NCBI GenBank assembly: GCA_963733345.1
Contig: CAVTDX010000076.1
Location: 13,753 to 77,752, forward strand
DNA from: an uncultured delta proteobacterium
GTDB lineage: Bacteria; Desulfobacterota; Syntrophorhabdia; Syntrophorhabdales; WCHB1-27
Direction of reading: 5' to 3'
DNA: 64,000 nucleotides
The notes below the pieces were generated by a model. The model made no database searches and had not been told where the DNA came from. It worked only from the letters and a program-made list of their open reading frames with translations. Below are positions 26,492 to 46,552 of this stretch, one piece after another (position 1 is the first letter of the stretch; every line of letters starts with the position of its first letter). Both the position numbers and the translations under genes were made by a program.

Positions 26492-28898
26492 ATGAAGGGG
26501 CCTCCAGATCGAGTTATCAGCTCTGCTTTTTACGGTCGAATCCTTCGTGAGGACAAGGCCAAGAAACAGCTCTTGAGATCTCATCTCCGAAACGTAGCCG
26601 AAAGGACATTGGAGTCTGCAAAGGAAGCGCAGCCTGTCCGTGCGAACGAAGGTCAGGAAACAAAGCGCTGGAAGGAGAACTTCCACAATACAGCACATGC
26701 TGCTGGTTTATTGCACGACTTAGGAAAATACCGCAAAGAATTTCAGGAATACCTTCTTGGTCAAAGAGGGCGCAGCACAGAAACAAACCATGCCGCATAC
26801 GGTTCTGCTGCTGCCGCACACCAGTTTGGCGACGATGCCTCAGCGTTTGCTATTGCCGGACATCATGCAGGGCTTCATGACCTTGCGATGTTGGACGATC
26901 TGGTCAACGGCCCAAAGTACAGCGCCTATGAGAAGTATGGTCAATTGCTTACACTGGCCCAGGGTGAAAGAGAATTGGGCGCTTTTCCGGAATCCAATCC
27001 TGCCACCATGGGCAGTTCTGATGACAGCGAAAAGCGTCGCCATGAATTCATGATCCGAATGCTGTTTTCCATCGTCGTTGATTCCGATCGTTTAGATGCT
27101 GAGCGCTGGGAAATGGAGCAGAAAGCAGGAAAGCCCTGGCAGCGACAGATCAGCAAACTTGATGCTGCAGGCCTTCTGCACCGGATTCAGGCAGTAAGGG
27201 AGCAAAAGAAACGTGAACGTCCCGAGGATGATCTCAACCATCTGCGCAACACAATCTTCGATGCCGGTATGGATAAAGGCGAGCGACTACCTCAGGGTTT
27301 CTTTAGCCTCACCGTGCCCACAGGCGGGGGAAAAACCCTGTCCTCCATGGCCTTTGCCCTTGCACACGCCAAAAAACATGATCTCAGGCGGGTGATCGTG
27401 GTAATCCCCTACCTATCCATCATAGAGCAGAATGCCAAAGAATACAGAGATGCTCTTGGCGACAGGATTGTATTGGAGCATCATTCTGCCGTTGAAGTCC
27501 TGTCAGACGCCCGAAGGCCTGATAGCGGGGAACCTAATGAACCAACGAATATCTCCGATCTAGAGAAAGCGATGGAAAACTGGGATATGCCGGTAATTGT
27601 TACTACGAGCGTCCAGTTTATCGAAACGCTCTTTGCCGCGTCTCCGGGACAGGCTCGCAAGCTGCATAGCATAGCGCAGAGCGTCGTGGTATTCGACGAA
27701 GTGCAGACATTGCCGACCCACCTTCTTGAACCGACACTGAATGTGTTGCGTGAATTGAGGGATCACTGGGGTGTCAGCATCCTTTTCTGTTCGGCTACAC
27801 AGCCTGCATTCAAGAAATCAGCTACTCTAAGAAATGGATTTGAACCAAATGAGATGGTTCCAATAGTTTCAGAACCGGAACGGGTATTCAAAACACTCCG
27901 CCGAGTGGACTACCGTGTAGAACCCAAGGAGAACCCTGTCGATTGGCGAACCCTTGCTGAAAGAATGACCGCTCATCCGCAAGCCCTGTCCGTTCTTAAC
28001 GTCCGTCGTCAGGCTTTTGGGCTTTGGGAGGCCCTGCATGCGCGCCTGCGGGAGAGAGTCTACGGTGAAGAAGTGCGGGAGGCACTGTTTCATCTATCCT
28101 CGGCCATGTGCCCGGCCCATCGTTTGGATTTACTCGGACTCTCGAAGAACCCACCATGCAATAATATTAAGACAAGGCTCAAGAGCGGCAAGCCATGCTG
28201 GGTCGCCTCCACGCAATTGGTCGAAGCAGGGGTTGATATCGACTTTCCAATTGTTTTCAGGGCCATGGGTCCTCTTGATTCCCTTGTACAGGCGGCCGGA
28301 AGATGCAATCGAGAGGGATTACTGCGCGATAAGCAAGGAAACTTCTGCCGTGGGCAGGTCGTTATCTTCTACCCCTCCGATGCTAGAGCTGCCGCCTGGA
28401 ATTTACAGTATAGGGACAAGCATTACCCCTGCCTATCTTGAACCGGAAAAACTCGCCGAAGATCCAGCCATTTTTGCCCGATACTTCCACGAACTCTACC
28501 AGATTACGCCAACGGATTTTACCCGGATCGGGCAACATACTATTCAGGAATATCGTGCTGAGTTCAGGTTTCGCAAGGTGGCTGAACACGCGCGAGTCAT
28601 AAAGGATGCGACCATTTCTGTGATCGTGCCGTACGGCAAGGGCAAGGAAATGATCGGTGATGTCCGCCGCGAAAAAGACTTCGATTTCAAAACCCTGCGC
28701 CAGTTGCAGCGATATATGGTAAGTATCCGCAATCAGGGACCTTATTCTGATTTTGCGAAACTGAAAGCGATTGGAGCCATAACGCCGCTCCTGCACGACC
28801 GTCTGGAAATCCCTGTGCTCGCTGATTGGTGTTACAAAACCGACCCACCCCTTGGGGTGGTAATCGAGAATAGACCAATGGAGGACTTTTTCCAATGA
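26492..28898 (+). CDS. cas3: Cas3 HD nuclease/helicase, frameshifted as assembled near 28385-28400
   Basis: HD domain (LLHDLGKY, GHHAGLHD, VDSDRLDAE) and helicase motifs (TVPTGGGKT, VVFDEVQ, SATQP). The C-terminal domain continues in another frame (ORF 28017..28898) and ends with ATGA coupling to cas5. Confidence 0.85.
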
Positions 28899-29788
28899 AC
28901 CCAACAAATCCTGTTACTGTCCGCGTATGGGGGGATTATGCCTGCTTCACCAGACCGGAAATGAAAGTGGAACGGGTGAGCTACCCCATCTGTACCCCGT
29001 CGGCCGCCCGTGGAATACTCGAAGCTATCTACTGGGAGCCGCAGATGTACTATGTCATCGACACCATCTCTGTCGTAAAGAAAGGGCGATGGTTCAATTT
29101 TCGTCGCAATGAGGTGACCTCGGTGATCAGTTTGAAAGAAGCCCAGTCATGGATGGCGGGAAAAATTCCTATCAAGTATATCTCTGCCGGTGGAGGCGCT
29201 CCGGATGCGGCTCAGAGAAATATGCTTGCGTTGGCAGATGTCGAATACCTTATCACGGCAGAGGTGCGGACAACTGGACTCCATGACGCCAACCGCTTCA
29301 ACCTACAAAAATATCTCAAAGAGATAGAAAGGCGTGCGTCAAAAGGAAAATGCTATCACCGTCCAGCCTTCGGCTGCCGGGAATTCGCTGCCGACTTCGA
29401 ATGGGTCCCGGATGTGAAGGAAGCCTTGGAGCAAAGGGCCGCTGAGGTGCATGCCGACAAAGAGAAAAAGGATTGGAGAAAAACGTGGGCCGAAGAGGAC
29501 CTCGGGCTGATGCTCTATGACGTCTTCGATGTGAGCCAGCGTGGGGAAGGCTTCCGATGGCTCACAGGCGAGGAATTGGAGGCTGCTTTGTCTGGTCAAA
29601 CGTTGGCCGCAACGAAAGCCCCAAAGGGCAAGAAGAAAACTACTCCGGACAACCAACTGAAGTATTTTGAGGGAACCCCGATTGTTCCGCATGCCGCCTT
29701 CTTCCACGCCAGAATCAAAGACTCGCAGATGGATTGCCACCCGGAACGAGTCAAAATAATACCGGAAAGAAGAAAGGAGGTGATTTGA
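28895..29788 (+). CDS. cas5c: Cas5c/Cas5d (type I-C)
   Basis: VRVWGDYACFTRPEMKVERVSYPICTPSAARGILEAIYWEP is a typical Cas5d N-terminus. 297 aa, longer than usual. Confidence 0.9.
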   Translation: MNPTNPVTVRVWGDYACFTRPEMKVERVSYPICTPSAARGILEAIYWEPQMYYVIDTISVVKKGRWFNFRRNEVTSVISLKEAQSWMAGKIPIKYISAGGGAPDAAQRNMLALADVEYLITAEVRTTGLHDANRFNLQKYLKEIERRASKGKCYHRPAFGCREFAADFEWVPDVKEALEQRAAEVHADKEKKDWRKTWAEEDLGLMLYDVFDVSQRGEGFRWLTGEELEAALSGQTLAATKAPKGKKKTTPDNQLKYFEGTPIVPHAAFFHARIKDSQMDCHPERVKIIPERRKEVI

Positions 29789-31878
29789 TGTTTCTTCAAG
29801 CCCTGTATGAATATGCACAGAAGAACCGATTACTTGATAACCTTCCTTTGCAGACAAGAGTTGTACACGCCTTAATCGCGATTAATTACGATGGAAAGCT
29901 AAGAGTCGATCACTTAGTCCCGTTGAGCCATACTGACGAAAAAGGGAAGGAACGCCCAGGCCAAGAAAGACTGATGCCAAGATTCCCCGGCGAGAACAAT
30001 GGTGGTAAAGCTTATTTTCTTGCGGAAAACTGCACAGCCGTCTTGGGTATTGAGCACTCTGAAGACACAAAGAAAGGCATTTCTCCCGGCGATCCAATCT
30101 TTTGCGATCCAAGGAGGGGTGGTAATTCTACAAAGGCCTTTCTTCATTTCTGGAATCAGATTGAGCAAGCCTACGCCAAAACCCAGGATGAGAGGTTGGG
30201 CGCATTGCTATCATTTCGTTCAAACTACTTAAGCGAGCGTGGTGGCAAAATAATGGCGAATCTACCCTTTATCGAAGTTCAGATGGGCAAAAGAGACAAC
30301 TTGGAATTAGTGGCAAGAACTAATGAGAGAGATTTCCTACCTTTGAAGGCGGCAACTCTGGGATTCAGCGTTGAGGGCGAACCGCTGATCACGGAAAACA
30401 ATAGCGACCCCCTCCGTGCGTACTGGTTTGACCGGTATTTGGAAGAGGTATTTGACGATGACAATATCGAGGCTCCAGTCTTCGTTTCAAATACCGACAG
30501 CATATGCCTCATAACCGGAGAGGCTGGTTTGCCCATTGCTCGTTCCCATAAGCCCAAAATTCTTGGCGTGCCAAAACTGTCATCAGGCGGCTATGTTGTG
30601 TCGTTTGCCAAGGAAGCCCCTGCATTTTCATCTTATGGTAACGAAATGGGACAAAATGCACCCGTATCTGAACGGGCAGCCGCATCTTATGCACTGGCCA
30701 TTAATGAATTCCTAAGGCAAGAAGATAATCACATCAATATTGGGCCTTTGTCGGTCTGTTTTTGGTCAAAGGTAAATATCGAGGTACCGGGACAGTTCAA
30801 ATCGATGTTGAGCAGGGCGTACCCGGAACAAGTCAGAGACTTTCTTCTTGCGCCTTTTGCGGGTATTAGCGGTAGAGAGCCATTGCGTAGAGATCGACTT
30901 TACACTGCCGCTCTTGCAGGAAATGCCGGAAGAGTAGTAGTCTGCCACTGGTTGGATCAGACTCTGAATGAAGCTATTGTCAATTTCAACCACTGGTGGG
31001 GTGATCTCCAGATTGTAAGTGTCTACAGTGCTTCCACTGTAGAAGGTCGTGAAAGACGGGCATCGCCTCTCGCAATTCAAAATCTGGCTCGTGCGACTCT
31101 TCGACAGTCAAAGAAGCAGAAGACCGACAAGTTGTTGCCCACCCGCATTATTCAAATATACCGGGCTGCCCTTGAAGGGACCTCGCTCCCGATCATAATG
31201 CTCAAGTCAATTCTTGATGAGTTTTACAGCGCCCTTGTGAAGAACGATGAGCAAAACCAGACGTACCCTTACAGCCAGTCAAGGTTTGCCCTTATCAAAT
31301 TAATACTTATTCGAAACAAAAAGGAGGAGTTTATGCCAGAGTACCAGTTAGCCGACACAACCGACGCATCATACAATCTTGGTTGTTTGCTCGCAGTGCT
31401 GGAAGCCCTACAGAAACGATCGGTGCGAGCAGGGAAGGCAGGCCCCGAACAAGGCGCTGATAAACCAAATGCCGGAATTATCGAAAGGTACTACGCCCAG
31501 GCATCAACGGCCCCAGCGCTTGTCTTCCCGTATCTTTTGTCCCTCTCGCGACACCACTTTTCAAAGCTCTCGAAGGGAAGTGAGAAGGACAAGAGAGCTG
31601 CTAAGGCCATTGAGGAGACCGTAATCGACATTTGCAAAAAGTTCAAAGCTACCCCCGAAGAACCAGGTGAGGCTCCCAAATTTCCTCGCCTACTGGATCT
31701 GGAACGGCAAGGCCGCTTTGCGTTGGGCTTTTACCAACAAAAAGCATACGACATCGAACAAGTCAGAAAATTCAGGGCGTCCAAAGGGATGCAGGGTCTT
31801 GATATTGCCGATATCGATGACAGCGAGGAAGCAGAGACTGAATCTGCTGAATACAAAACAAACCGCAAAGGAGAATAA
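29788..31878 (+). CDS. cas8c: Cas8c large subunit (type I-C)
   Basis: ATG at 29788 follows AAAGGAGG and overlaps the cas5 stop (TGATG). 696 aa. Lies between cas5 and cas7. Confidence 0.8.
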   Translation: MFLQALYEYAQKNRLLDNLPLQTRVVHALIAINYDGKLRVDHLVPLSHTDEKGKERPGQERLMPRFPGENNGGKAYFLAENCTAVLGIEHSEDTKKGISPGDPIFCDPRRGGNSTKAFLHFWNQIEQAYAKTQDERLGALLSFRSNYLSERGGKIMANLPFIEVQMGKRDNLELVARTNERDFLPLKAATLGFSVEGEPLITENNSDPLRAYWFDRYLEEVFDDDNIEAPVFVSNTDSICLITGEAGLPIARSHKPKILGVPKLSSGGYVVSFAKEAPAFSSYGNEMGQNAPVSERAAASYALAINEFLRQEDNHINIGPLSVCFWSKVNIEVPGQFKSMLSRAYPEQVRDFLLAPFAGISGREPLRRDRLYTAALAGNAGRVVVCHWLDQTLNEAIVNFNHWWGDLQIVSVYSASTVEGRERRASPLAIQNLARATLRQSKKQKTDKLLPTRIIQIYRAALEGTSLPIIMLKSILDEFYSALVKNDEQNQTYPYSQSRFALIKLILIRNKKEEFMPEYQLADTTDASYNLGCLLAVLEALQKRSVRAGKAGPEQGADKPNAGIIERYYAQASTAPALVFPYLLSLSRHHFSKLSKGSEKDKRAAKAIEETVIDICKKFKATPEEPGEAPKFPRLLDLERQGRFALGFYQQKAYDIEQVRKFRASKGMQGLDIADIDDSEEAETESAEYKTNRKGE
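31333..31878 (+). CDS. candidate internally translated Cas11c small subunit
   Basis: In-frame ATG at 31333 lies 5 nt after AAGGAGG (31321-31327), inside the cas8c 3' region. Confidence 0.45.
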   Translation: MPEYQLADTTDASYNLGCLLAVLEALQKRSVRAGKAGPEQGADKPNAGIIERYYAQASTAPALVFPYLLSLSRHHFSKLSKGSEKDKRAAKAIEETVIDICKKFKATPEEPGEAPKFPRLLDLERQGRFALGFYQQKAYDIEQVRKFRASKGMQGLDIADIDDSEEAETESAEYKTNRKGE

Positions 31879-31881
31879 GCC

Positions 31882-32850
31882 ATGGAAACATCACTCACAA
31901 ATCGTCATGACGTTCTGATCCTTTTCGATGTAACGAATGGTAATCCTAACGGTGATCCTGATGCCGGCAATATGCCGCGTATCGACCCTACGAGCAACAA
32001 GGGCTTGGTTTCGGATGTGTGCATGAAGAGAAAGATTCGTAACTACGTATCTGACTTCAAGAAGGAAGTCCGGTACGACATTCTGGTGCGGCAGGGGAAC
32101 ATAATGAATAACGAAATCACAACCGCCATAAAAGATGCGACTGAGACGCTCCCCAACAAGGAGAAGGCAACAGACAAAGAAAAAGCCGAGGCCGCCATGA
32201 AATGGCTTTGTAATAAATTCTACGACGTAAGGGCGTTTGGCGGCGTTCTTTCAATCGGCAAAGATGTGCTCCAGGGTTCCGCGTTCGGACAAGTACGTGG
32301 TCCTATTCAGTTCACATTTGCCAGGTCCTTAGACCCTATTACTCCGCTGGACATCTCGATTACCCGCTGCGCTGTCACAAGGCCAGAGGACGAAAAGAAG
32401 GAGCGTACCATGGGCAACAAACACATCATTCCATACGCCCTCTACGCAGCCAAGGTCTACATTTCACCTGTATTTGCCGAGAGGACGGGTTTTAGCAATG
32501 ACGATCTCACGCTTTTCTTCGATGCGCTCGGCAATATGTTTACGCACGATCAATCGGCGGCCAGGGCTGAAATGACCGTTCGCGGAATCTACGACTTCGA
32601 ACATGTGGGCACTCAGAGCCCGAATAACGGCGATCAGAACAAACGCGAGGCCCGCCTTGGATGCTATCACGCCCACAAGCTGTTTGAAGGAATCAAGGTT
32701 GAACTAAAACCGGGCAAGACGTATCCGGAATCGTTTGACGATTACAAGGACAACATTACGTGCGCGTGGACTGAAGACAGCCTTCCGAAAGGAGTTGTGC
32801 TGCACATTAGACATGAACAGCCTATCGCTTCGATCAGATCTCGGTCATGA
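31882..32850 (+). CDS. cas7c: Cas7c/Csd2 (type I-C)
   Basis: ILFDVTNGNPNGDPDAGNMPRIDP..GLVSDVCMKRKIRNY is a typical Csd2 sequence. Confidence 0.9.
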   Translation: METSLTNRHDVLILFDVTNGNPNGDPDAGNMPRIDPTSNKGLVSDVCMKRKIRNYVSDFKKEVRYDILVRQGNIMNNEITTAIKDATETLPNKEKATDKEKAEAAMKWLCNKFYDVRAFGGVLSIGKDVLQGSAFGQVRGPIQFTFARSLDPITPLDISITRCAVTRPEDEKKERTMGNKHIIPYALYAAKVYISPVFAERTGFSNDDLTLFFDALGNMFTHDQSAARAEMTVRGIYDFEHVGTQSPNNGDQNKREARLGCYHAHKLFEGIKVELKPGKTYPESFDDYKDNITCAWTEDSLPKGVVLHIRHEQPIASIRSRS

Positions 32851-33566
32851 TCGAGACGCGCAGCCGGGAAGAGTTTTCCCAAGACGATCTGATACCTATC
32901 TCGTCTGTTGCCGATCTGGTCTTCTGTGAACGAAGGGCTGCTCTTCATTTTGTTGAAGGTGCATGGGAAGAAAATCAGTTTACTGCCGAAGGTCATCTCC
33001 TTCATGACAAAACCGACGAGGTCGATTGTGAGATGCGAAAAGAGGTTCGTATTGTCCGGGGGCTGCGGCTCCGTTCCTTGAAGCTGGGCCTTTCGGGTGT
33101 GGCCGACGTCGTAGAATTCCGTCGTCTCGGTGTTTCACCGTCTACGGCCAGTTCTGACAGCGAGCCTACACATGGGGTTGCTTTACCGGGAGTCAAAGGG
33201 TTCTGGAGGCCGTTTCCGGTGGAGTATAAGCGAGGGAAGCTGAAACATGAGAAAAGCTACGAGATCCAGATTTGTGCCCAAGCATTATGCCTGGAAGAGA
33301 TGCTAAATGCACGAATCGTAGACGGTGCGATCTTCTATGGGAAATCGATGCGGAGACACGGTGTGACCTTCACGGATACCGTCCGGAAGGAAACGGAAGG
33401 CGCCGCAAGACGCATGCACGCGCTTATTGCTTCAGCAACGACACCAGAGCCGATCTACGGCAAGAAATGTAACAGTTGTTCACTTTTTGAGGAATGCTTG
33501 CCGAAAACCATGGGCAAAAAGTCTTCGGTGAAGCGCTACCTGGAACGAATGGTGAGCTCGCCATGA
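32847..33566 (+). CDS. cas4: Cas4 RecB-like nuclease
   Basis: N-terminal Cys plus C-terminal CNSCSLFEEC Fe-S cluster motif. ATGA coupling to cas7 and cas1. Confidence 0.9.
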   Translation: MIETRSREEFSQDDLIPISSVADLVFCERRAALHFVEGAWEENQFTAEGHLLHDKTDEVDCEMRKEVRIVRGLRLRSLKLGLSGVADVVEFRRLGVSPSTASSDSEPTHGVALPGVKGFWRPFPVEYKRGKLKHEKSYEIQICAQALCLEEMLNARIVDGAIFYGKSMRRHGVTFTDTVRKETEGAARRMHALIASATTPEPIYGKKCNSCSLFEECLPKTMGKKSSVKRYLERMVSSP

Positions 33567-34594
33567 AAAAACTCCTTAACACGCTCTATGTGACCACCCA
33601 GGGGGCGTACCTCGCGAAAGAAGGCGAGACGGTGGCCGTGAAGGTCGATGGCGACGTGCGTTTGCGCATACCCGTGCACACCATCTCCGGCATCGTCTGC
33701 TTCGGCAACGTAGGGTGCAGCCCGTATCTTATGGGTTTCTGCGCAGAAAACCAGGTGGCCGTGAGCTTCCTGAGCGAGCACGGCCGATTTATGGCAAGGG
33801 TGCAGGGTCCCGTCTCAGGCAACGTCCTTCTGAGAAGGGAGCAATACAGGCGCGCCGACGACCTCCGGCAATCGGCGGAGGTCGCAAAAAGCGTCCTGAC
33901 CGGGAAAATCGCTAATTGCCGGGCTGTGCTGCTCAGGGCGGCCAGGGACCACGCAAGCAAGATCGACGAGCACCAGGTCCGCCACGCTGCCGCGCGCCTG
34001 ACCAGGCAGGTCGAGCTTCTTGCCCGGGAATACCCTCTTGATGCGTTGCGCGGCATAGAGGGAGATTCGGCCCACATCTATTTCGATGTGTTCGATCATC
34101 TGATCGTTGCCCAAAAAGAGGCGTTCCGGTTCAATGAGCGCAACAGGCGCCCGCCCCTCGATAACGTAAATTGCCTGCTCTCCTTCATTTATACCCTTGT
34201 GATGCACGACGTAAGATCGGCCCTGGAGACAGTCGGGCTCGATCCAGCGGTAGGTTTCCTGCACAGGGACAGACCCGGCCGGCCCGGGCTCGCCCTCGAT
34301 CTCATGGAAGAATTCAGACCCTTGGTAGCAGACCGCCTTGCTCTCTCGCTCATCAATCTGCAGCAGGTGCAGGACAAGGGGTTCAAAAAGATGGATTCGG
34401 GGGCAGTCACTATGACCGACGAAACGCGAAAGACCGTGCTCGTGGCGTATCAGGAGCGAAAGCAGGAAGAGATTCTGCATCCGTTTCTTGGGGAAAAAGT
34501 GGCGATCGGCATGCTGTTTCACGTCCAGGCGCTCCTCTTCGCGCGCTATCTGCGTGGAGACCTTGACGGTTATCCGCCCTTCATCTCGAAATAG
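33563..34594 (+). CDS. cas1: Cas1 integrase
   Basis: MKKLLNTLYVTTQGAYLAKEGETV..; GIEGDSAHIYF; FLHRDRPGRPGLALDLMEEFRP. Confidence 0.95.
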   Translation: MKKLLNTLYVTTQGAYLAKEGETVAVKVDGDVRLRIPVHTISGIVCFGNVGCSPYLMGFCAENQVAVSFLSEHGRFMARVQGPVSGNVLLRREQYRRADDLRQSAEVAKSVLTGKIANCRAVLLRAARDHASKIDEHQVRHAAARLTRQVELLAREYPLDALRGIEGDSAHIYFDVFDHLIVAQKEAFRFNERNRRPPLDNVNCLLSFIYTLVMHDVRSALETVGLDPAVGFLHRDRPGRPGLALDLMEEFRPLVADRLALSLINLQQVQDKGFKKMDSGAVTMTDETRKTVLVAYQERKQEEILHPFLGEKVAIGMLFHVQALLFARYLRGDLDGYPPFISK

Positions 34595-35077: not shown

Positions 35078-38129
<3,052 letters not shown>

Positions 38130-38227
38130 TCTTTGCGATCTCCTTTAGGGCCTGTCAAGGACCAAGTTAATTCCCCACCCCCGGGGCCACGGTAATTCCC
38201 CACTTTGCACCGCAAGAGAGTGGTTTG

Positions 38228-38973
38228 TTATTGCTTCGTCTTCGGACTCAGGTTCTTCCTATAGGACTCTCCTTCATCGATCATAATGTGATGGGCATGA
38301 TGGCTCAGGCGATCGAGCGCCGAGTTGGCCATGACCGGGTCGGGGAACAGGGCCACCCAGTCCTGAGGCGGCCGGTTGCTGGTGATGATTGTGGATGATC
38401 TCAAATGGCGCTCCGCCACCAGCTCGTAGACGTCTTCCGCCTGGATGGGCGTCAGCGCCGTGAGCCGAAGTCGTCGATGATCAGCAGATCGGGGTTAAGG
38501 TACTTCCTGATCTGCCTTTCCCACGACTGATCGGCCCTCGACGCAAAGAGATGCCTGAGCATCTTGACCGCCTTCACAAAAAGCACGCCGTATCCCCTCC
38601 TGCAGGCCTCGTGACCCAGCGCCTGGGCGAGGTGGGTCTTTCCCACCCCGGCCGGCCCATAGATGAGCACATGCTCTTTTTTCTCTATAAAAAGACACGC
38701 GGCGAGATCGGTCACGGCCCCTCGTTTGATCTTCGGGTTGAAGGCGAAGTCGAACCCTTCCAGCGTCTTCTCTTCTTCAAAGGATGCTTTCTGTATCCTG
38801 ACGGCGAGCTTCTTCGTCTCCCTTCTTTCGATCTCGTCCTGCATGACAAGAGTAAGGAAGGCGAGATGGGAGAGTTCGTCTTTCTCCGCCTGGGCGAGCC
38901 TGAGCTCCAGGCTTTCTCCAAATCCTCCGAGCTTGAGCTTTCTGAGATCGGCCATGAGGTGATGATCAATCAT
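38228..38973 (-). CDS. istB: IstB ATP-binding helper, frameshifted as assembled near 38455-38468
   Basis: Walker A GPAGVGKTHLA and LLIIDDFG in ORF 38452..38973. The continuation LTPIQAEDVYELVAERHLRSSTIITSNRPP runs in another frame down to 38228. Confidence 0.85.
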
Positions 38974-40549
38974 GGGACGCCTCCTTCCCGAAGTATGAGG
39001 GCTTTCGGAGGAACCGCTTTCCTAGATCGGACAGGGGCGCTGAATGCGTCGTCGTCTGCTCATCGGAGAGGTCTTTTTCCAGCATGGCCTTGATGCTCCT
39101 GTACCGGGTCGCGCCGAAGCTCAATGCTCTTTCGGCAACTTCTTCTATCTTGCCCGAGTGCTTCTCGGCAAGGCGGAGGATCGCCTGGGCCTTCCGGAGG
39201 TTCCTCATGGCGTTTTCTTTAAGGATGGCGTAAATGAGCGCTTCCGTATGGGGACCGAACTCGGCTGCCTTCTTCCTGCACCACGTGGGCGTCGCCATGA
39301 GGAAGGCGAGCTTCTCCGGCGGATAGTCCGTCTGGTCCGTCGCCCATCGTCCGGGCGCATGGGACCGCGGGTGAAGTTTGATCCTTTCCTGGTCGAGGAA
39401 GATCTCCGTCGTCTTCTTGGTTCCCTTCGCCCACACCTTCTTGCCGATGTACCGGGTCGGCAGCGAGTAGTAGGATTTGTCGAAGACGATGTGATGGTCG
39501 GGATGGACGGTGCACTCTTTCCACAGCGGACGCTCGAAAGGGGTTTCCGGCAGCGGCATAAGATGCGGCTTCTCTTCCATGAGGAATGTCGGATAAGGTT
39601 TCTTCTTGGTTGTTCCGTGGACCTCCATGCCGATCTCTTCCTTGCACCAATGGAGAGCTCGAACGTTTGCCTCCTTAATGTCTTTGAACGTCCTGCCTGC
39701 AAGGAGGTGTTTTTTCACCACGGCGACGGCGCGCTCCACCTTGCCTTTGTGTTCGGCCATTCTCACCTTCGCGGGGTCGGCGACGAAGCCGCAATGGCGT
39801 TCCATGTCGGCATAGGCCCGGTTGATCGTGGGGTCGTAAATGTCGGGCTTCAAAACGCCGGACTTGAGGTTGTCCAGGATTATTCTTTTCGGGACGCCCC
39901 CGAAGAAGGCGAAGGCCCGCTCGTGACAATCGAGCCACATGTCCGTTTCCTGGCGGAAGACGAAGCGGACGAACTTGTGGCGGCTCGAGGAAAGGGTCAT
40001 GATGAAGGCCCATGTCCTGCGCTTCCTGTCTGCCTCGGGATCGTACATGAGCCCCGCATAGCCGAAGTCGACCTGGGCTTCCAGTCCCGGAGGAGTCTCT
40101 ATGCGGACCGTCGCCTTAGTTTTGCCGAAGGAGAACTCCGAGCGGAGATAACGCTTGATCGTGCTGTAGCCGACTTGAATGCCGTGAGTTTCTCTAAGGA
40201 GCCGCCACACCTGCTTGGCGGTCATGTTCTCGTCCTTGAGCCATTTCTCGATCTCGTCCCTGTGCCGGGCCGCCAGATCGAGGGCCGGCGTCTCGAAGGC
40301 CGCCTGCACGTTCAGAGGAGCATTGAGTCTGCAAACGGACTCTTGCTCGTCCGGAAGCGGCCCTCCCTGGGCAATCCCCAAGGATCGCGCCATGGCGACA
40401 TACTTCCGCACGGTCTTTCTGTCGAGACCTAAAGACTGGCTAATATGCTGGATCTTCATTCCCTTATGCCACTGGTACACTGTCTCCGCTACCTCATTCA
40501 TCGGTATATCCCTCCTCGCCATGATCCCTCCGTTCCAGGTCGTTGCCAT
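38966..40549 (-). CDS. istA: IstA transposase (IS21 family)
   Basis: N-terminal HTH (ISQSLGLDRKTVRKYV) and a DDE integrase core. The start may be the ATG at 40522. Confidence 0.9.
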   Translation of the reverse strand: MATTWNGGIMARRDIPMNEVAETVYQWHKGMKIQHISQSLGLDRKTVRKYVAMARSLGIAQGGPLPDEQESVCRLNAPLNVQAAFETPALDLAARHRDEIEKWLKDENMTAKQVWRLLRETHGIQVGYSTIKRYLRSEFSFGKTKATVRIETPPGLEAQVDFGYAGLMYDPEADRKRRTWAFIMTLSSSRHKFVRFVFRQETDMWLDCHERAFAFFGGVPKRIILDNLKSGVLKPDIYDPTINRAYADMERHCGFVADPAKVRMAEHKGKVERAVAVVKKHLLAGRTFKDIKEANVRALHWCKEEIGMEVHGTTKKKPYPTFLMEEKPHLMPLPETPFERPLWKECTVHPDHHIVFDKSYYSLPTRYIGKKVWAKGTKKTTEIFLDQERIKLHPRSHAPGRWATDQTDYPPEKLAFLMATPTWCRKKAAEFGPHTEALIYAILKENAMRNLRKAQAILRLAEKHSGKIEEVAERALSFGATRYRSIKAMLEKDLSDEQTTTHSAPLSDLGKRFLRKPSYFGKEASHD

Positions 40550-40702
40550 AGGAATGGCAGAATCATGTCCTTTCCGTCCACCCTTTCGAGGCGGCGCAAA
40601 GTGGGGAATTACCTTGGCCCTGCTACTGGGGAATTACCTTGGCCCCGATGGCCTTATAGTGGGGATATACCATGGCCCTCGACGGGCCCTGACGACTTCT
40701 CG

Positions 40703-43077
<2,375 letters not shown>

Positions 43078-43616
43078 AACACCCAGGGGGACGACCATAA
43101 CTATATAACTAACTCTTGAAAAACTCCCACTGTCATGATAAAATCCCGCCATGGCCCGGCACTCCCGCCTTGACGCGGCAGGCATCCTTCATCACGTTAT
43201 TGTTCGGGGCATCGAACGGAGGAGAATATTTTCAGACGACTCCGACCGGGATGATTTTCTTAATTGCTGTGGAGGGATCTTTCCTGAAACGAAAACCGCC
43301 TGTTATGCCTTCGCGCTCTTGCCTAATCACGCGCACTTGCTCCTGCGCACGGGCGCCGCGCCTCTTTCGACTGTCATGTCCCGTTTGCTGACCGGCTATG
43401 CGGTCTATTTCAATAGGCGATGCCGAAGGCACGGGCAGCTATTTCAGAACCGCTATAAGTCCATTGTGTGTCAGGAAGATGCATACCTCAAGGAGCTCGT
43501 TCGGTACATTCATCTTAATCCTCTTCGAGCCGGGCTTGTGAAGGACTTGGAGGCATTGGCAATTTTCCCCTATAGCGGCCATGCGACGCTCATGGGGAAG
43601 ACAAGGTACGCCTGGG
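43078..43616 (+). repeat. first unit of a 539-bp tandem duplication (promoter plus 5' 466 nt of the Y1 gene)
   Basis: Collinear with 43617-44155 with 4 mismatches by eye. Confidence 0.9.
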
Positions 43617-43639
43617 AACACCCAGGGGGACGACCATAA
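43151..43639 (+). pseudogene. truncated copy of the Y1/HUH transposase-like gene
   Basis: Identical N-terminal ~155 aa, then reads into the duplicated upstream sequence (..AWEHPGGRP stop). Confidence 0.85.
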
Positions 43640-43689
43640 CTATATAACTAACTCTTGAAAAACTCCCACTGTCATGATAAAATCCCGCC

Positions 43690-44691
43690 ATGGCCCGGCA
43701 CTCCCGCCTTGACGCGGCAGGCATCCTTCATCACGTTATTGTTCGGGGCATCGAACGGAGGAGAATATTTTCAGACGACTCCGACCGGGATGATTTTCTT
43801 AATCGCTGTGGAGGGATCTTTCCTGAAACGAAAACCGCCTGTTATGCCTTCGCGCTCTTGCCTAATCACGCGCACTTGCTCCTGCGCACGGGCGCCGCGC
43901 CTCTTTCGACTGTCATGTCCCGTTTGCTGACCGGCTATGCGGTCTATTTCAATAGGCGATGCCGAAGGCACGGGCAGCTATTTCAGAACCGCTATAAGTC
44001 CATTGTGTGTCAGGAAGATGCATACCTCAAGGAGCTCGTTCGGTACATTCATCTTAATCCTCTTCGAGCCGGGCTCGTGAAGGACTTGGAGGCATTGGCA
44101 ATTTTCCCCTATAGCGGCCATGCGATGCTCATGGGGAAGACAAGATACGCCTGGCAAGACGACGAGTCAATCCTCGCCTTGTTCGCCGCCAAGGACGCGA
44201 GGGCGGCTTATCTCGATTTCGTAAGAGCTGGTCTTGCACAAGGGCGAAGGCCGGATCTGTCCGGCGGCGGGCTGATGAGAACTCATGGAGGATGGACCGA
44301 GATCAGCAAATCGCCTCAACGTCTGAAAGGCGACGTGCGCGTGCTGGGCGACAGTCAATTCGTCCTTGATGTTCTTTCCCAGGCGCAGCAGGAACTCGAG
44401 CATCGTTACAGACTCAAGATCATGGGCGTTGATTTTCCCTTTGTTGAGCGCAGGGTGCTTGAACTCTGCGGTCTGGCGCCGGACGATCTCTACAGCCGGG
44501 GCAGGCAGAAGCAACGCGCGGCAGCTAAGGGGCTCCTCTGCTTTTGGGCGGTCCGTGAACTCGGCATGTCCCAGACCGAGCTTTCAGGGCGCTTGAGGAT
44601 GACCCAGCCCGGGATAGCGTCTGCCGTTGCACGAGGCCAAAGACTTGCGAAGGAAAAGGGGTATCTGCTTTTCGCAGCCGCTCCACGATAG
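43690..44691 (+). CDS. IS200-like/REP-associated Y1 (HUH) transposase-family protein with a DnaA domain-IV-like C-terminal HTH
   Basis: HUH motif LPNHAHLLL; catalytic-Tyr region LVRYIHLNPLRAGLV. The C-terminal RQKQRAAAKGLLCFWAVRELGMSQTELSGRL resembles Bac_DnaA_C. Confidence 0.7.
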   Translation: MARHSRLDAAGILHHVIVRGIERRRIFSDDSDRDDFLNRCGGIFPETKTACYAFALLPNHAHLLLRTGAAPLSTVMSRLLTGYAVYFNRRCRRHGQLFQNRYKSIVCQEDAYLKELVRYIHLNPLRAGLVKDLEALAIFPYSGHAMLMGKTRYAWQDDESILALFAAKDARAAYLDFVRAGLAQGRRPDLSGGGLMRTHGGWTEISKSPQRLKGDVRVLGDSQFVLDVLSQAQQELEHRYRLKIMGVDFPFVERRVLELCGLAPDDLYSRGRQKQRAAAKGLLCFWAVRELGMSQTELSGRLRMTQPGIASAVARGQRLAKEKGYLLFAAAPR

Positions 44692-44944
44692 AATGTCTCG
44701 GCCCGGCCCTCTGCCGCCCGGCATAAAATCGGCGACATATCCAATTAGGCATTACCCATTTAATTAGGTAATGGATTAGGCAACATGGCGCGTCGGTTGC
44801 GCTATCGGGCCGCTTCTGCGAGAAGGGAAGCTGAGAGTCCTGGCAACTGGCCGTGGGGCCGCTTGGCAAAAAACATGAAAATATCCCATAAACGCGATAA
44901 TAACCAATTTCTTGAGAAGGAGCTGCGCTCATGGCGGGGATGAC

Positions 44945-45262
44945 ATGGACTCTCACATAGCGGTTTTCAGAGGTAAGGAAATCAGGAAGACGATCCATAA
45001 TGATGACTGGTGGTTCGCAATTGTCGATGTGTGGGCCGTTTTGACTGAAAGCGCAGATGCGGGAGCATACTGGAGAAAGCTGAAACAAAGACTCAAGGAA
45101 GAAGGGAGCGAAGTCGTGACATTTTGTCACGGGTTGAAACTGCTTGCTCCCGACGGCAAGCTGAGAGAAACGGATTGCGCCAACACCGAAGGCATTTTTC
45201 GCATCATCCAGTCCATCCCTTCTCCCAAAGCCGAGCTTTTCAAGCGTTGGCTGGCGAAGGTC
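44945..45262 (+). pseudogene. Bro-N domain (prophage antirepressor-like) gene truncated at its 3' end
   Basis: IRKTIHNDDWWFAIVDVWAVL..EGIFRIIQSIPSPKAELFKRWLAKV fits Bro-N. Homology ends at about 45262, where CRISPR-repeat-like sequence begins. Confidence 0.55.
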
Positions 45263-45330
45263 GGAACCGGGAGGCGATCTGGGAGGCAGAGGCGGTCAAT
45301 AGTGTTCCCCGCAGGTGCGGGGATGAACCG
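45263..45330 (+). CRISPR. type I-E-like CRISPR remnant: 7-nt repeat tail, 32-nt spacer, one full 29-nt repeat
   Basis: GTGTTCCCCGCAGGTGCGGGGATGAACCG at 45302-45330. GGAACCG ends at 45269, exactly 32 nt before it. Confidence 0.6.
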
Positions 45331-45365
45331 CCCCTTTCGACTTTAGACTTTTAACTATGCCTATC

Positions 45366-45400
45366 GTCACCCAGCGCGGGGGCCTGGGAACTCATTAAAC
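45366..45400 (+). repeat. degenerate CRISPR-like palindromic repeat
   Basis: GTCACCCAGCGCGGGGGCCTGGGAACTCATTAAAC shares GTC, GCGCGGGGGC, TGG and AAAC with the I-C repeat. Lies 35 nt after the I-E repeat. Confidence 0.45.
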
Positions 45401-45439: not shown

Positions 45440-45778
45440 TCATTCCGTTCTTGCATGTTTGCTGCAGACGGTTGTCCAGGGAATTGTCTCAAGGCGTTCC
45501 ACCTCGATTTCTTTTCCACAGACCTCACAGACGCCGAATTCCCCGAGTTGGATCCTCGCCAGCGCCCTGCTTATGGCTTGGATCTCTTTCTGCTCTGTTT
45601 CGTCCAGTGTTGCCAGAACATCGGCGATAGCCTCCTTCTGCGCTGTGTCTTCAGCTTCGATATCGTGCTCTGACAAGATAAGCCGTGCTTCATCGTTAAG
45701 CCTATGGGCATCGAAGACTTCGTCGCGTTTTTTGAGCAATTGCTCACGAATTGTCCCCATCTGTTCCGCTCTGCTCAT
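45440..45778 (-). CDS. DksA/TraR-family C4-type zinc-finger protein
   Basis: ATG at 45778 follows AAGGAGA. Coiled-coil N-terminus, then CEVCGKEIEVERLETIPWTTVCSKH. Confidence 0.75.
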   Translation of the reverse strand: MSRAEQMGTIREQLLKKRDEVFDAHRLNDEARLILSEHDIEAEDTAQKEAIADVLATLDETEQKEIQAISRALARIQLGEFGVCEVCGKEIEVERLETIPWTTVCSKHARTE

Positions 45779-45954
45779 AAGATCTCTCCTTCGGCTCGAG
45801 CGCCTCATGGGTAAGTATCATCACCGGCTTCCACTATTGCAACAATTCCGGCTATTCCGAGCGGCAGCTTATAATCCCGCATGGGACGAGGGTGCGGCTG
45901 GGTTTCAAACCTCCCGGATGGCGCTGGCTGTGCACAGGCAGCTTGCCCCCTACC

Positions 45955-45986
45955 GTCGCCCCCCGCGCGCGGGCGTGGATTGTAGT
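45955..45986 (+). CRISPR. degenerate I-C repeat, probable original terminal repeat of the array
   Basis: GTCGCCCCCCGCGCGCGGGCGTGGATTGTAGT matches the consensus at 28 of 32 positions; the mismatches cluster at the 3' end. Confidence 0.7.
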
Positions 45987-46087: not shown

Positions 46088-46282
46088 TCAGGCGGCGAAG
46101 CTGAGGATTTCGACCTCGGCCGAGGAATCGACCCGGCCAAGGAGAATGTCGACCTTCGCCAGCACCCCGTCTTCAAGGAGGTATTCGCTGCAGTTGCTGC
46201 ACTGCCAAACGGGGAGGTTCTTGATTATGACGATAGAATTTTCCCTCACCTTGAAGGGGAGGTCGGTATTGACGTGCTTCAT
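46088..46282 (-). CDS. YgiT/MqsA-type zinc-ribbon antitoxin-like protein
   Basis: ATG at 46282 follows AGGAGG. LPVWQCSNCSEYLLED is a single CxxC knuckle; the first knuckle is absent. Confidence 0.5.
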   Translation of the reverse strand: MKHVNTDLPFKVRENSIVIIKNLPVWQCSNCSEYLLEDGVLAKVDILLGRVDSSAEVEILSFAA

Positions 46283-46552
46283 CTCTTCCTCCTTTTGAAA
46301 TCGCCGAGCCATTTGTCAGGGGCTGGTCTATATGCGGTAATGATTTTCACACAATCACTTTCCATGGCTTCCGGTACCCCGCCCCTGTTCGGTTTCGGCG
46401 AGGGAGAAGTGCTCGCTGATAAGAACCCTTTCTTTTGCCGATCCCGGTATCGTCACGAGAAAATGCTGGGCGGACTCCATAGGTATGAAGCCGAACCCTT
46501 CTGAGCTGAAACGCCTTGGTCGAGGAGTGCATGATTGCTTCAGACTCTTCAT
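46279..46552 (-). pseudogene. decayed toxin gene (DUF4258-like C-terminus) upstream of the zinc-ribbon antitoxin
   Basis: The frame ending VKIITAYRPAPDKWLGDFKRRKR overlaps the antitoxin ATG (ATGA) but is open for fewer than 60 codons. The upstream part lies in other frames. Confidence 0.35.

Follow-up and report, generated by a model that had tools for sequence, protein, structure and literature searches.

TIRYTs, or TIRtrons, were described by Di Nocera et al. (2013, PMC3733652) and are equivalent to the TnpA_REP-like subclass 2.1.2 with Bac_DnaA_C of Quentin et al. (2018, PMC6006769), the group being marked by a C-terminal HTH of the Bac_DnaA_C, HTH_23 or HTH_28 type. The passages of both papers that deal with the group describe this transposase-HTH architecture with GGGG-tipped terminal inverted repeats (TIRs) instead of REP hairpins; they treat these little-studied elements bioinformatically, and they make no mention of anchored end reiterations or of a promoter in the TIR. 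For the RAYT/REPtron system, the study of E. coli TnpA_REP (PDB 4ER8; PMC3479197) reported that the enzyme cuts some way from the REP, covered guide-sequence recognition of cleavage sites, and proposed that any 3'-OH may resolve the 5'-phosphotyrosine intermediate. RAYT genes are domesticated, occur once per genome, and are flanked by GTAG-tagged REP hairpins, with REPs abundant in the genome. Elements of the IS200/IS605 group have imperfect subterminal hairpins and no terminal inverted repeats, and integrate on the 3' side of a fixed tetra- or pentanucleotide.

We analyzed a 64-kb stretch of DNA (the window) with a full-length, 333-aa TIRYT gene at 43690-44691 (+ strand). The predicted protein combined a Y1/HUH domain at ~residues 5-135 (H60, H62, Y119), a low-confidence linker at residues ~191-226 (pLDDT < 50), and a DnaA-domain-IV-like HTH at ~residues 249-318. 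Pfam Y1_Tnp matched at 37.9 bits (cut-off 23), and the three catalytic-type residues were invariant across an alignment of 30 sequences (A1). The best Foldseek match of the AF2 model (pLDDT 79.6) was 4er8_A, the E. coli RAYT-REP complex (E=5e-7), which aligned with the N-terminal domain and was followed by IS200, ISDra2, and IS608 TnpA. An earlier interpretation made from the DNA letters only (the sequence-only reading) had named a RAYT-like Y1/HUH protein with a DnaA-domain-IV-like tail. Both parts were supported. The tail was recovered by the A1 profile, which matched DnaA domain IV in the PDB (2z4r, E=0.006), and by Foldseek of the C-terminal domain against DnaA domain IV (1j1v, TMt 0.71, rmsd 1.8 Å), and PF08299 was precomputed on many homologues, but Bac_DnaA_C gave no Pfam match at E<=0.01 on the window protein itself. 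A PDB search with the single window sequence gave no match, while the profile and fold searches did. Assignment to a RAYT-like Y1/HUH enzyme with a DnaA-domain-IV-like HTH, within the TIRYT/TIRtron group, is thus well supported.

The protein shared the HUH motif and a catalytic Tyr in a YIHxNP-type motif with RAYTs, and differed from them in an extra HTH domain of ~190 aa, in a score of 62.6 bits on the NCBIfam REP_Tyr_transpos equivalog, below the cut-off of 80, and in the AT-rich TIR with a GGGGACG tip that flanks the gene in place of REP hairpins. Similarity to IS200/IS605 TnpA (IS608, ISDra2) extended to the Y1/HUH fold, Pfam Y1_Tnp, the lack of a target-site duplication, and a left end joined to a 3'-OH with no element sequence lost. 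The window protein was larger than these enzymes and had the HTH domain, and TIRYT relatives had covarying TIRs in place of subterminal hairpins, with no fixed target tetranucleotide or conserved flank detected.

The left TIR was present in two identical copies (43086-43113 and 43625-43652, both +; GGGGGACGACCATAACTATATAACTAAC), carrying the tip usual in the family, GGGGACG.CC, and then an AT-rich arm (ATAACTATATAACTAAC). The tip, GGGGGACG, is one position off the GGGGWSAS consensus in the published passages, from which the GGGGACG(T/A)CC form seen here departs at the 7th base. No further TIR copies were found in the 64-kb window. Straight after the TIR, a promoter-like site (43116-43144, +; TTGAAA, 17-nt spacer, TAAAAT) had its -10 box followed at 6 nt by an ATG, and the site recurred at 43655-43683. 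Each of the two ORFs at this locus is therefore predicted to retain its own promoter, with the left TIR carrying the gene's putative promoter.

Upstream of the gene, 75 of 81 relatives had GGGGACG.CC, then the AT-rich arm and TTGACA. Their upstream TIR took the form GGGGACGTCC-ATAAnTAA... with the -35 box inside, and its complement came directly after the stop codon, with the tip ~26 nt past the stop in 54 of the 81. Left and right TIRs covaried, with cognate pairs matching at 23/27 positions versus 17/27 for non-cognate pairs. There was no target-site duplication, as expected for HUH chemistry: the 8 nt outside the tips had 1.83 matches in cognate and 1.84 in non-cognate pairs. These features make a unit of roughly 1.1 kb, with a tyrosine transposase-HTH gene bounded by ~27-nt TIRs, well supported. 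The right TIR of the relatives corresponds to 44692-44720 in the window and is absent there. The window copy is thus one-ended and probably immobile.

The sequence-only reading had placed the element terminus at AACACCC. The conserved end instead begins at GGGGG (43086), and the outer 8-9 bases were not conserved among close relatives. The window's exact 24-nt left TIR had no match in JGI metagenomes; a degenerate TIR pattern recovered 32 subfamily loci there, none with the outer AACACCCA. No second copy of the exact window element that could define its terminus was found in the metagenome and relative searches.

The wider family was abundant, with at least 7,981 database clusters matching the window protein. 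The TIRYT group was multi-copy and very large in Desulfobacterota, in contrast to single-copy RAYTs. Several MAGs (e.g., JAYENE01, JAFDHL01, RPGQ01) had 2-3 diverged copies, some clustered or tandem. Gene-less TIRs of the window subfamily were common on metagenome contigs, with copies dispersed in related metagenomic genomes; published TIRYTs have such dispersed repeats in the genome that carries the gene. The earlier picture of a REP-using family gives way to one already described as TIRYT, with terminal inverted repeats instead of REP hairpins.

The window copy abuts a type I-C CRISPR array (35078-43025, +) of 81 perfect 32-nt repeats (GTCGCCCCCCGCGCGGGGGCGTGGATTGAAAC). Pfam identified cas3, cas5d, csd1 (cas8c), cas7, cas4, and cas1 at 26492-34594, and both this gene set and 32-nt repeats with the 3' end ATTGAAAC are those of type I-C. 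As the cas genes lie upstream, 43025 is the leader-distal (oldest) end. Rfam returned only weak CRISPR-DR9 matches at the locus, on intact repeats. Repeat 82 (43061-43077, +; GTCGCCCCCCGCGCGG[G]) matched the repeat for 16-17 nt and was followed directly by AACACCCAGGGGGACGACC. Past position 17, only 5/15 bases agreed, so the repeat ends in a break; this count ruled out a degenerate terminal repeat. In the I-C repeat, positions 3-9 pair with 15-21 to give a 7-bp GC hairpin. As the sequence-only reading had noted, the break falls in the 3' arm of that hairpin. Both a right end of the element and the second half of the repeat are missing, so the junction does not establish a plain insertion into the repeat. 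Farther out, the region past the trailer end was a patchwork of remnants, including a degenerate full-length I-C repeat (45955-45986, +; GTCGCCCCCCGCGCGCGGGCGTGGATTGTAGT), probably left over from the original array terminus, and another I-C-like remnant at 45367-45400.

The sequence that follows the broken repeat, AACACCCAGGGGGACGACC, occurred exactly twice, at 43078 and 43617 (chance expectation 0.03 matches), the second time joined to about codon 155 of the transposase gene. Both the recurrence and the 539-bp tandem that the sequence-only reading had drawn from it were confirmed, with four internal mismatches (43265/43804, 43537/44076, 43587/44126, and 43606/44145). Base 43616 is G and 44155 is C, which sets the duplicated unit as 43077-43615 and 43616-44154. 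Unit 1 (+) held a 9-nt outer flank (GAACACCCA), the left TIR, the promoter, and transposase codons 1-155, and unit 2 (+) ran on into the remainder of the full-length gene. The truncated ORF (43151-43639, +; 162 aa) departed from the full-length gene after codon 155. It encoded a complete Y1/HUH domain without the HTH, and its final 7 codons were foreign. Junction placement was ambiguous over a GG(G) microhomology, and the junction itself, CCTGGG-AACA-CCCAGG, folds into a perfect 6-bp hairpin.

Near-identical repeats can be joined wrongly in metagenome assembly, which raised the question whether the tandem is a strain chimera or a repeat that was collapsed or expanded. An independent assembly (L001; ENA contig ERZ25039519:contig_67421) had different leader-proximal spacers and yet carried both junctions and the four copy-specific substitutions identically. 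L001 also has indels typical of error-prone assembly. The shared junctions and substitutions show the tandem to be real and old, and we consider an assembly artefact scarcely credible.

Reiterated ends were a property of the family. Exact reiterations across the TIR boundary occurred at 8/66 left ends versus 18/2530 control positions (p~1e-7) and at 4/52 right ends versus 4/2153 controls (p~2e-5), an enrichment of ~15-fold or more. In 27 other reiterated tips, the unit mostly started 6-11 nt outside the tip, most commonly at 7-9, with variable inner ends; at locus L105 alone, the units were 11, 28, and 62 nt long and began 7-9 nt beyond the tip. Inverted copies of the tip immediately outside the TIRs were weakly enriched (p=0.015), a signal confounded by the palindromic GGACGTCC, through which direct reiterations score too. 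The window duplication started 9-11 nt outside the tip and so reads as a case of the same process: it looks like an unusually long one, and would be the longest example of anchored end reiteration. The special point just outside the left TIR proposed from sequence is thus likely.

We therefore favor, at roughly even confidence, a TIRYT nick at a fixed outer point, with the resulting 5' end joined on two occasions to unrelated 3'-OH ends. The enzyme, by analogy with its RAYT relative, would cut a single strand a few bases beyond the TIR tip, always at the same position. In the window the footprints put this position at ~43077, which is 9-11 nt on the 5' side of the G-run. The enzyme would then remain covalently on the 5' end as a 5'-phosphotyrosine. 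In one event (A), the accepting 3'-OH would have come from repeat 82 of the array, within the G-run of its 3' arm, with the intervening DNA deleted or replaced; in the other (B), a 3'-OH at codon 155 of a sister copy would have produced the 539-bp tandem. Distant cleavage and transfer to any 3'-OH, as proposed for RAYTs, are the same steps that we infer for the window element. Several observations weigh against this reading: the nick site comes from the footprints alone, the 539-bp unit is far above the 8-62 bp of other reiterations, the outer 8-9 nt vary in close relatives and lack a second exact copy, and short reiterations by the palindromic tip could reflect hairpin-induced polymerase slippage. 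No uninterrupted allele that would give the order and nature (deletion or insertion) of the array event was found; exact-protein look-ups of the neighbors (DksA-like, YgiT-like) for an element-free allele had neither on record.

The second junction had 2-3 nt of microhomology and 6/8 identity in the preceding 8 nt (CGCGCGGG versus CGCCTGGG), both usable by replication slippage and a further point against a nick. Host replication errors without any transposase, a trailer deletion followed by a slipped-strand or template-switch tandem, are accordingly a possible origin, if on the unlikely side. Here CGCGCGG at the array/element junction would have mispaired with CGCCTGG at codons 153-155, perhaps stimulated by the GC palindrome CCCGCGCGGG at the junction. 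Truncated repeat 82 does keep a 10-nt perfect palindrome, and the patchwork of trailer remnants indicates many unrelated rearrangements. The microhomology does not single out the site, since a 6/8 match to a given 8-mer is expected ~4 times per kb. The left boundary of the duplication also lies within 3 nt of the array break, a ~1-in-300 coincidence if free, and at the tip distance where the 27 other family ends show anchored reiterations.

The sequence-only reading had argued for two independent junctions of one element terminus after YGGG. Spelled out, that model has AACACCC as the terminus, inserted 3' of YGGG first in the repeat and then in a copy of the element at codon 155, with the displaced halves later deleted. 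The independence is not clear, as the second junction is that of a tandem duplication with microhomology, and we regard the double insertion as quite unlikely. Both left-hand partners do end in GG(G), and the fixed target tetra- or pentanucleotide of IS200/IS605 is a precedent. In one gene-less TIR family the conserved end reaches 10-11 nt past GGGG, and in locus L036 a TIRYT copy truncated to residues 1-163 precedes the left end of another one. On the other side, neither displaced piece (half of the repeat, 3' half of copy 1) is present, nor is any right TIR, and this requires at least two extra deletions. The G at 43616 comes with the unit and not the gene, so the second "target" ends in GG rather than GGG. 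Pre-unit flanks in relatives ended in ATTA, CTAT, AGAG, AGTG, ATGG, AACG, and TAAT, and neither YGGG nor any other target consensus was found at other TIRYT junctions. A truncation hotspot at codon ~155-165 was also considered and was not convincing, with three cases only (143, 155, and 163).

Returning to the favored nick and joining, anchored end reiterations would predict both a nick site and the joining of a covalent 5' end to arbitrary 3' ends. If that holds, it would account for deletions next to the element as well as for partial tandem and one-ended copies. We know of no demonstration of activity, and no biochemistry, for any TIRYT.

The CRISPR repeat itself could have contributed. Compared with the TIR tip in reverse complement, the first 10 nt of repeat 82 agreed at 9/10 positions, and just 0.2% of 32-mers from the genome and 0.6% of shuffled repeats scored as high. 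The repeat stem's likeness to the TIR tip may have helped the CRISPR junction; as a lead into CRISPR biology, this sequence mimicry is weak. An extension of the favored mechanism, in our view rather unlikely, would have the footprints left by natural TIRYT activity (nick ~8 nt outside the tip, any nearby 3'-OH) with the I-C hairpin as a surrogate end: the cut would have fallen within the G-run of the repeat, whose arms (GTCGCCCCCC...GGGGGCG) mimic abutted TIR tips. If true, this would be the first in-genome evidence for a RAYT-like Y1 enzyme processing a CRISPR repeat, and the first on how TIRYT elements move or rearrange DNA.

A functional partnership, in which a domesticated RAYT-like protein uses I-C repeats as REP-like substrates, e.g., for array processing or rearrangement, is very improbable. 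It would draw on the 9/10 match, which lies in the 5' arm of the repeat, on a break 6-7 nt past this pseudo-tip in a G-run resembling the left TIR tip, and on the hairpin with 10-bp arms into which the array/element junction folds (z = -2.4). The tip similarity was a post hoc observation, the array's other 81 repeats are intact and perfect, and the family, multi-copy and bounded by TIRs, resembles a mobile element. Contrary to the proposal of repeats as REP-like substrates or sites, no CRISPR array lay beside the element in any of the 86 other protein-fetched loci (~0.5 Mb of flanks) or the 32 TIR-pattern loci read. CRISPR-like matches in L009 and L047 were not arrays but a tandem repeat of 60 nt and a repeat in coding sequence.

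CRISPR involvement is most likely incidental. The family is an already known one, and the junction pattern is family-wide, with no special CRISPR link. The best-supported description is a decayed, one-ended, partly duplicated TIRYT/TIRtron copy at the trailer end of a I-C array; the loss of the right TIR and the partial duplication set it apart from published TIRYTs. What the locus tells about CRISPR biology is mostly negative: trailer-end decay by another route and no new CRISPR-transposon partnership. As in IS insertions into CRISPR arrays, the array was disrupted by a mobile element, and the same array also holds an IS21 element (38130-40702) that lies cleanly within a spacer with both ends kept, whereas the TIRYT joins the array in the middle of a repeat, by one end only, at the trailer side.

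The gene at the end of the array encodes a Y1/HUH transposase of the RAYT-like type, as the sequence-only reading had proposed. Its N-terminal domain matched Y1_Tnp in Pfam (37.9 bits), and the NCBIfam RAYT model scored 62.6, under its cut-off of 80. H60 and H62 of the HUH motif (LPNHAHLLL) and Y119 (RYIHLNP) were invariant in a 30-sequence alignment, and the AlphaFold model (pLDDT 79.6) had its best structural match in the E. coli RAYT-REP complex 4er8 (E=5e-7), followed by IS200, ISDra2, and IS608 TnpA. The DnaA domain IV-like HTH tail noticed in that reading was borne out as well: the model's C-terminal domain superposed on DnaA domain IV 1j1v (TMt 0.71), a PDB search with a profile found this domain too (E=0.006), and PF08299 is precomputed in many homologues. 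Di Nocera et al. (2013, PMC3733652) gave the name TIRYT/TIRtron to RAYT-like genes with terminal inverted repeats (TIRs) on their flanks and a GGGGWSAS tip, and Quentin et al. (2018, PMC6006769) describe TIRYT genes as TnpA_REP-like subclass 2.1, with Bac_DnaA_C in subgroup 2.1.2. The window gene shares the published architecture of a Y1/HUH domain and a DnaA-like HTH, and we are confident that the element belongs to this family. The literature searched yielded no experimental work on TIRYT; with the family itself already described, the locus offers TIRYT biology a modest mechanistic lead.

A complete type I-C cas operon (Cas3, Cas5d, Csd1, Cas7, Cas4, and Cas1 by Pfam; 26492-34594, plus strand) is followed downstream by an I-C array with 81 perfect copies of the repeat GTCGCCCCCCGCGCGGGGGCGTGGATTGAAAC (35078-43025). 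Since the operon lies upstream of the array, the far end is leader-distal and oldest. An IS21 element sits inside an array spacer (38130-40702), with a 527-aa IstA (38966-40549, minus strand) and a broken IstB (38452-38973). The 82nd repeat matches up to 43077 only, where AACACCCAGGGGGACGACC comes next; just 5 of 15 bases past its position 17 agree with the repeat, which marks a break and rules out a degenerate terminal repeat. The fold computed for the I-C repeat is a GC hairpin of 7 bp, in whose 3' arm the break falls.

The 19-mer AACACCCAGGGGGACGACC has two exact occurrences in the window, at 43078 and 43617, and opens a tandem of 539-bp units that has four internal mismatches. Position 43616 is G and the gene base at 44155 is C, which sets the duplicated unit at 43077-43615 / 43616-44154; the junction position is ambiguous across GG(G). 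The tandem gives rise to a truncated ORF of 162 aa (complete Y1 domain plus seven foreign codons) and a full-length ORF of 333 aa, each with its own promoter-like site, TTGAAA-17-TAAAAT. A perfect 6-bp hairpin, CCTGGG-AACA-CCCAGG, is formed by the tandem junction (43594-43649, DNA fold z = -4.2). A protein search returned L001 (ENA contig ERZ25039519:contig_67421), with a fragment 99% identical at the protein level. L001 shares the IS21 insertion, the last spacers, both junctions, and copy-specific substitutions with the window and is unlike it in leader-proximal spacer content, so the duplication is older than the split of the two sampled populations. An assembly artefact is thereby ruled out as the source of the tandem. 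The broken repeat, the tandem, and the two junctions had been described accurately.

We compared the window copy with loci from three sources: GTDB genomes, for the most part Desulfobacterota MAGs (80 loci), protein look-ups (5 loci), and a degenerate TIR pattern (32 loci). The closest among the 80 GTDB loci was from Syntrophorhabdus (71%). GGGGACG.CC, an AT-rich arm, and TTGACA lay in this order upstream of the gene in 75/81, with the ATG ~60 nt from the tip, the G-run end of the TIR. The reverse complement of the left TIR followed the stop codon in 54 genes, its tip ~26 nt past the stop. Cognate left and right arms were identical at 23/27 positions vs 17/27 for non-cognate arms, and these are therefore true, covarying TIRs. 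Comparison of the element flanks of family loci gave no target-site duplication. Several MAGs had 2-3 diverged TIRYT copies, at times adjacent, and gene-less TIR copies were frequent. In L092 (1671 and 5313), L091, L109, L112, and L116, GCCGTCCCAC precedes gene-less TIR copies; it is the inverted tip, giving the hairpin GTCCC-ac-GGGAC with these copies, and two of them in direct orientation flank a 3.6-kb segment in L092. The window copy has a family-typical left TIR (43086-43113) with an embedded promoter, no right TIR was found past the stop codon of its gene, and it is a one-ended remnant. Another family locus, L036 (5460-6987), is built alike: a truncated but intact TIRYT ORF (residues 1-163) has its own TIR and promoter, and a diverged TIRYT, with left TIR and full gene, comes directly after it. 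L036 likewise has no right TIR; its copies, however, are old or diverged.

Many family ends carried short tandem reiterations across the TIR boundary. Within 150 nt in the outward direction, a boundary-spanning exact 10-mer recurred at 8/66 left ends vs 18/2530 control positions (p~1e-7), and such a 10-mer recurred at 4/52 right ends vs 4/2153 controls (p~2e-5). A scan for periodicity gave 28 tips with reiterations, whose units mostly began with a G and started 6-11 nt outside the G-run, most commonly 7-9 nt, while their inner ends were variable. Three units nested in one another (11, 28, and 62 nt) were seen at the right end of L105, each with its start 7-9 nt outside the tip. An inner end directly after GGGGACR, within the palindrome GGACGTCC, recurred there and at the left ends of L002, L006, L031, L033, L087, and L088, which suggests that cleavage or joining has a second favored site here. 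With a start 9-11 nt outside the tip, a G as first base, and an inner end 530 nt inside the element, the window duplication appears to be this family trait in a very long form. L083/L094 and L085/L101/L117 are the same locus from different samples (99.9% identity); the stretch from their common flank to the left TIR tip measures 105 nt in the former vs 7 nt (GTGCATA) in the latter. An 81%-identical TIRYT in L082 (823-1360) has its left TIR directly against a 5'-truncated IstB (IS21) gene. This polymorphism and truncation point to rearrangement exactly at the left tip.

HUH Y1 enzymes cleave ssDNA and are then attached to it through a 5'-phosphotyrosine. The TIRYT enzyme may nick at a fixed point ~8 nt outside the tip, and the nicked, covalently bound end would be resolved by variable 3' ends; the window junctions would then join the array repeat to 43077 and codon 155 to 43616. 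Such a scheme could explain the constant outer and variable inner boundaries of the reiterations, the lack of target-site duplications, and both window junctions, and we put its chances at somewhat below even. The E. coli RAYT cuts at a distance from REP, and any 3'-OH was proposed to resolve the intermediate (PMC3479197). The main rival is replication slippage driven by microhomology or a palindrome, with no role for the enzyme; GG(G) microhomology and 6/8 flanking identity at the tandem junction favor it, but the duplication boundary coincides with both the array break and the anchored point of the family. The sequence-only reading had combined a defined left end with a short YGGG target preference. 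Family-wide footprints make it plausible that one point at the left end is special, but the YGGG target was unsupported beyond the window locus, as neither YGGG nor any other consensus preceded the defined unit starts in family loci.

REP-like use of CRISPR repeats, also proposed in that reading, likewise lacked support outside the window locus. Arrays were found at 0/86 other protein-fetched loci (~0.5 Mb of flanks), where two candidates were false positives, and a CRISPR repeat at 0/32 pattern-fetched loci in the flanks read. The window locus does not demonstrate a simple insertion into the repeat: it lacks the other repeat half and the right TIR, and patchwork DNA follows it. Compared with the reverse complement of the TIR tip, the first 10 nt of the I-C repeat agree at 9/10 positions; 0.2% of genomic 32-mers and 0.6% of shuffles reach this level, and the likeness was spotted post hoc at a single locus. 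The array break lies 6-7 nt past this pseudo-tip, inside a G-run like that of the left tip, and the array/element junction is computed to fold into a hairpin with 10-bp arms. These features are the one lead toward use of the I-C repeat by the transposase as a surrogate end, which appears unlikely.

The patchwork downstream of the window element consists of remnants. A truncated Bro-N-domain ORF (region 44912-45400) extends into a type I-E-like repeat, GTGTTCCCCGCAGGTGCGGGGATGAACCG (45302-45330), of which the window has this single copy, and a degenerate I-C-like repeat remnant lies 36 nt past the I-E-like repeat (45367-45400); together these may be left over from a mini-array of a mobile element or from a solitary repeat unit. 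Degenerate I-C repeat remnants lie on both sides of a minus-strand DksA/TraR-type zinc-finger gene (45440-45808), and the I-C-like remnant at 45955-45986 is the probable original terminal repeat of the array. A YgiT/MqsA-like zinc-finger gene is found at 46088-46312 and adjoins a DUF4258 gene in L001.
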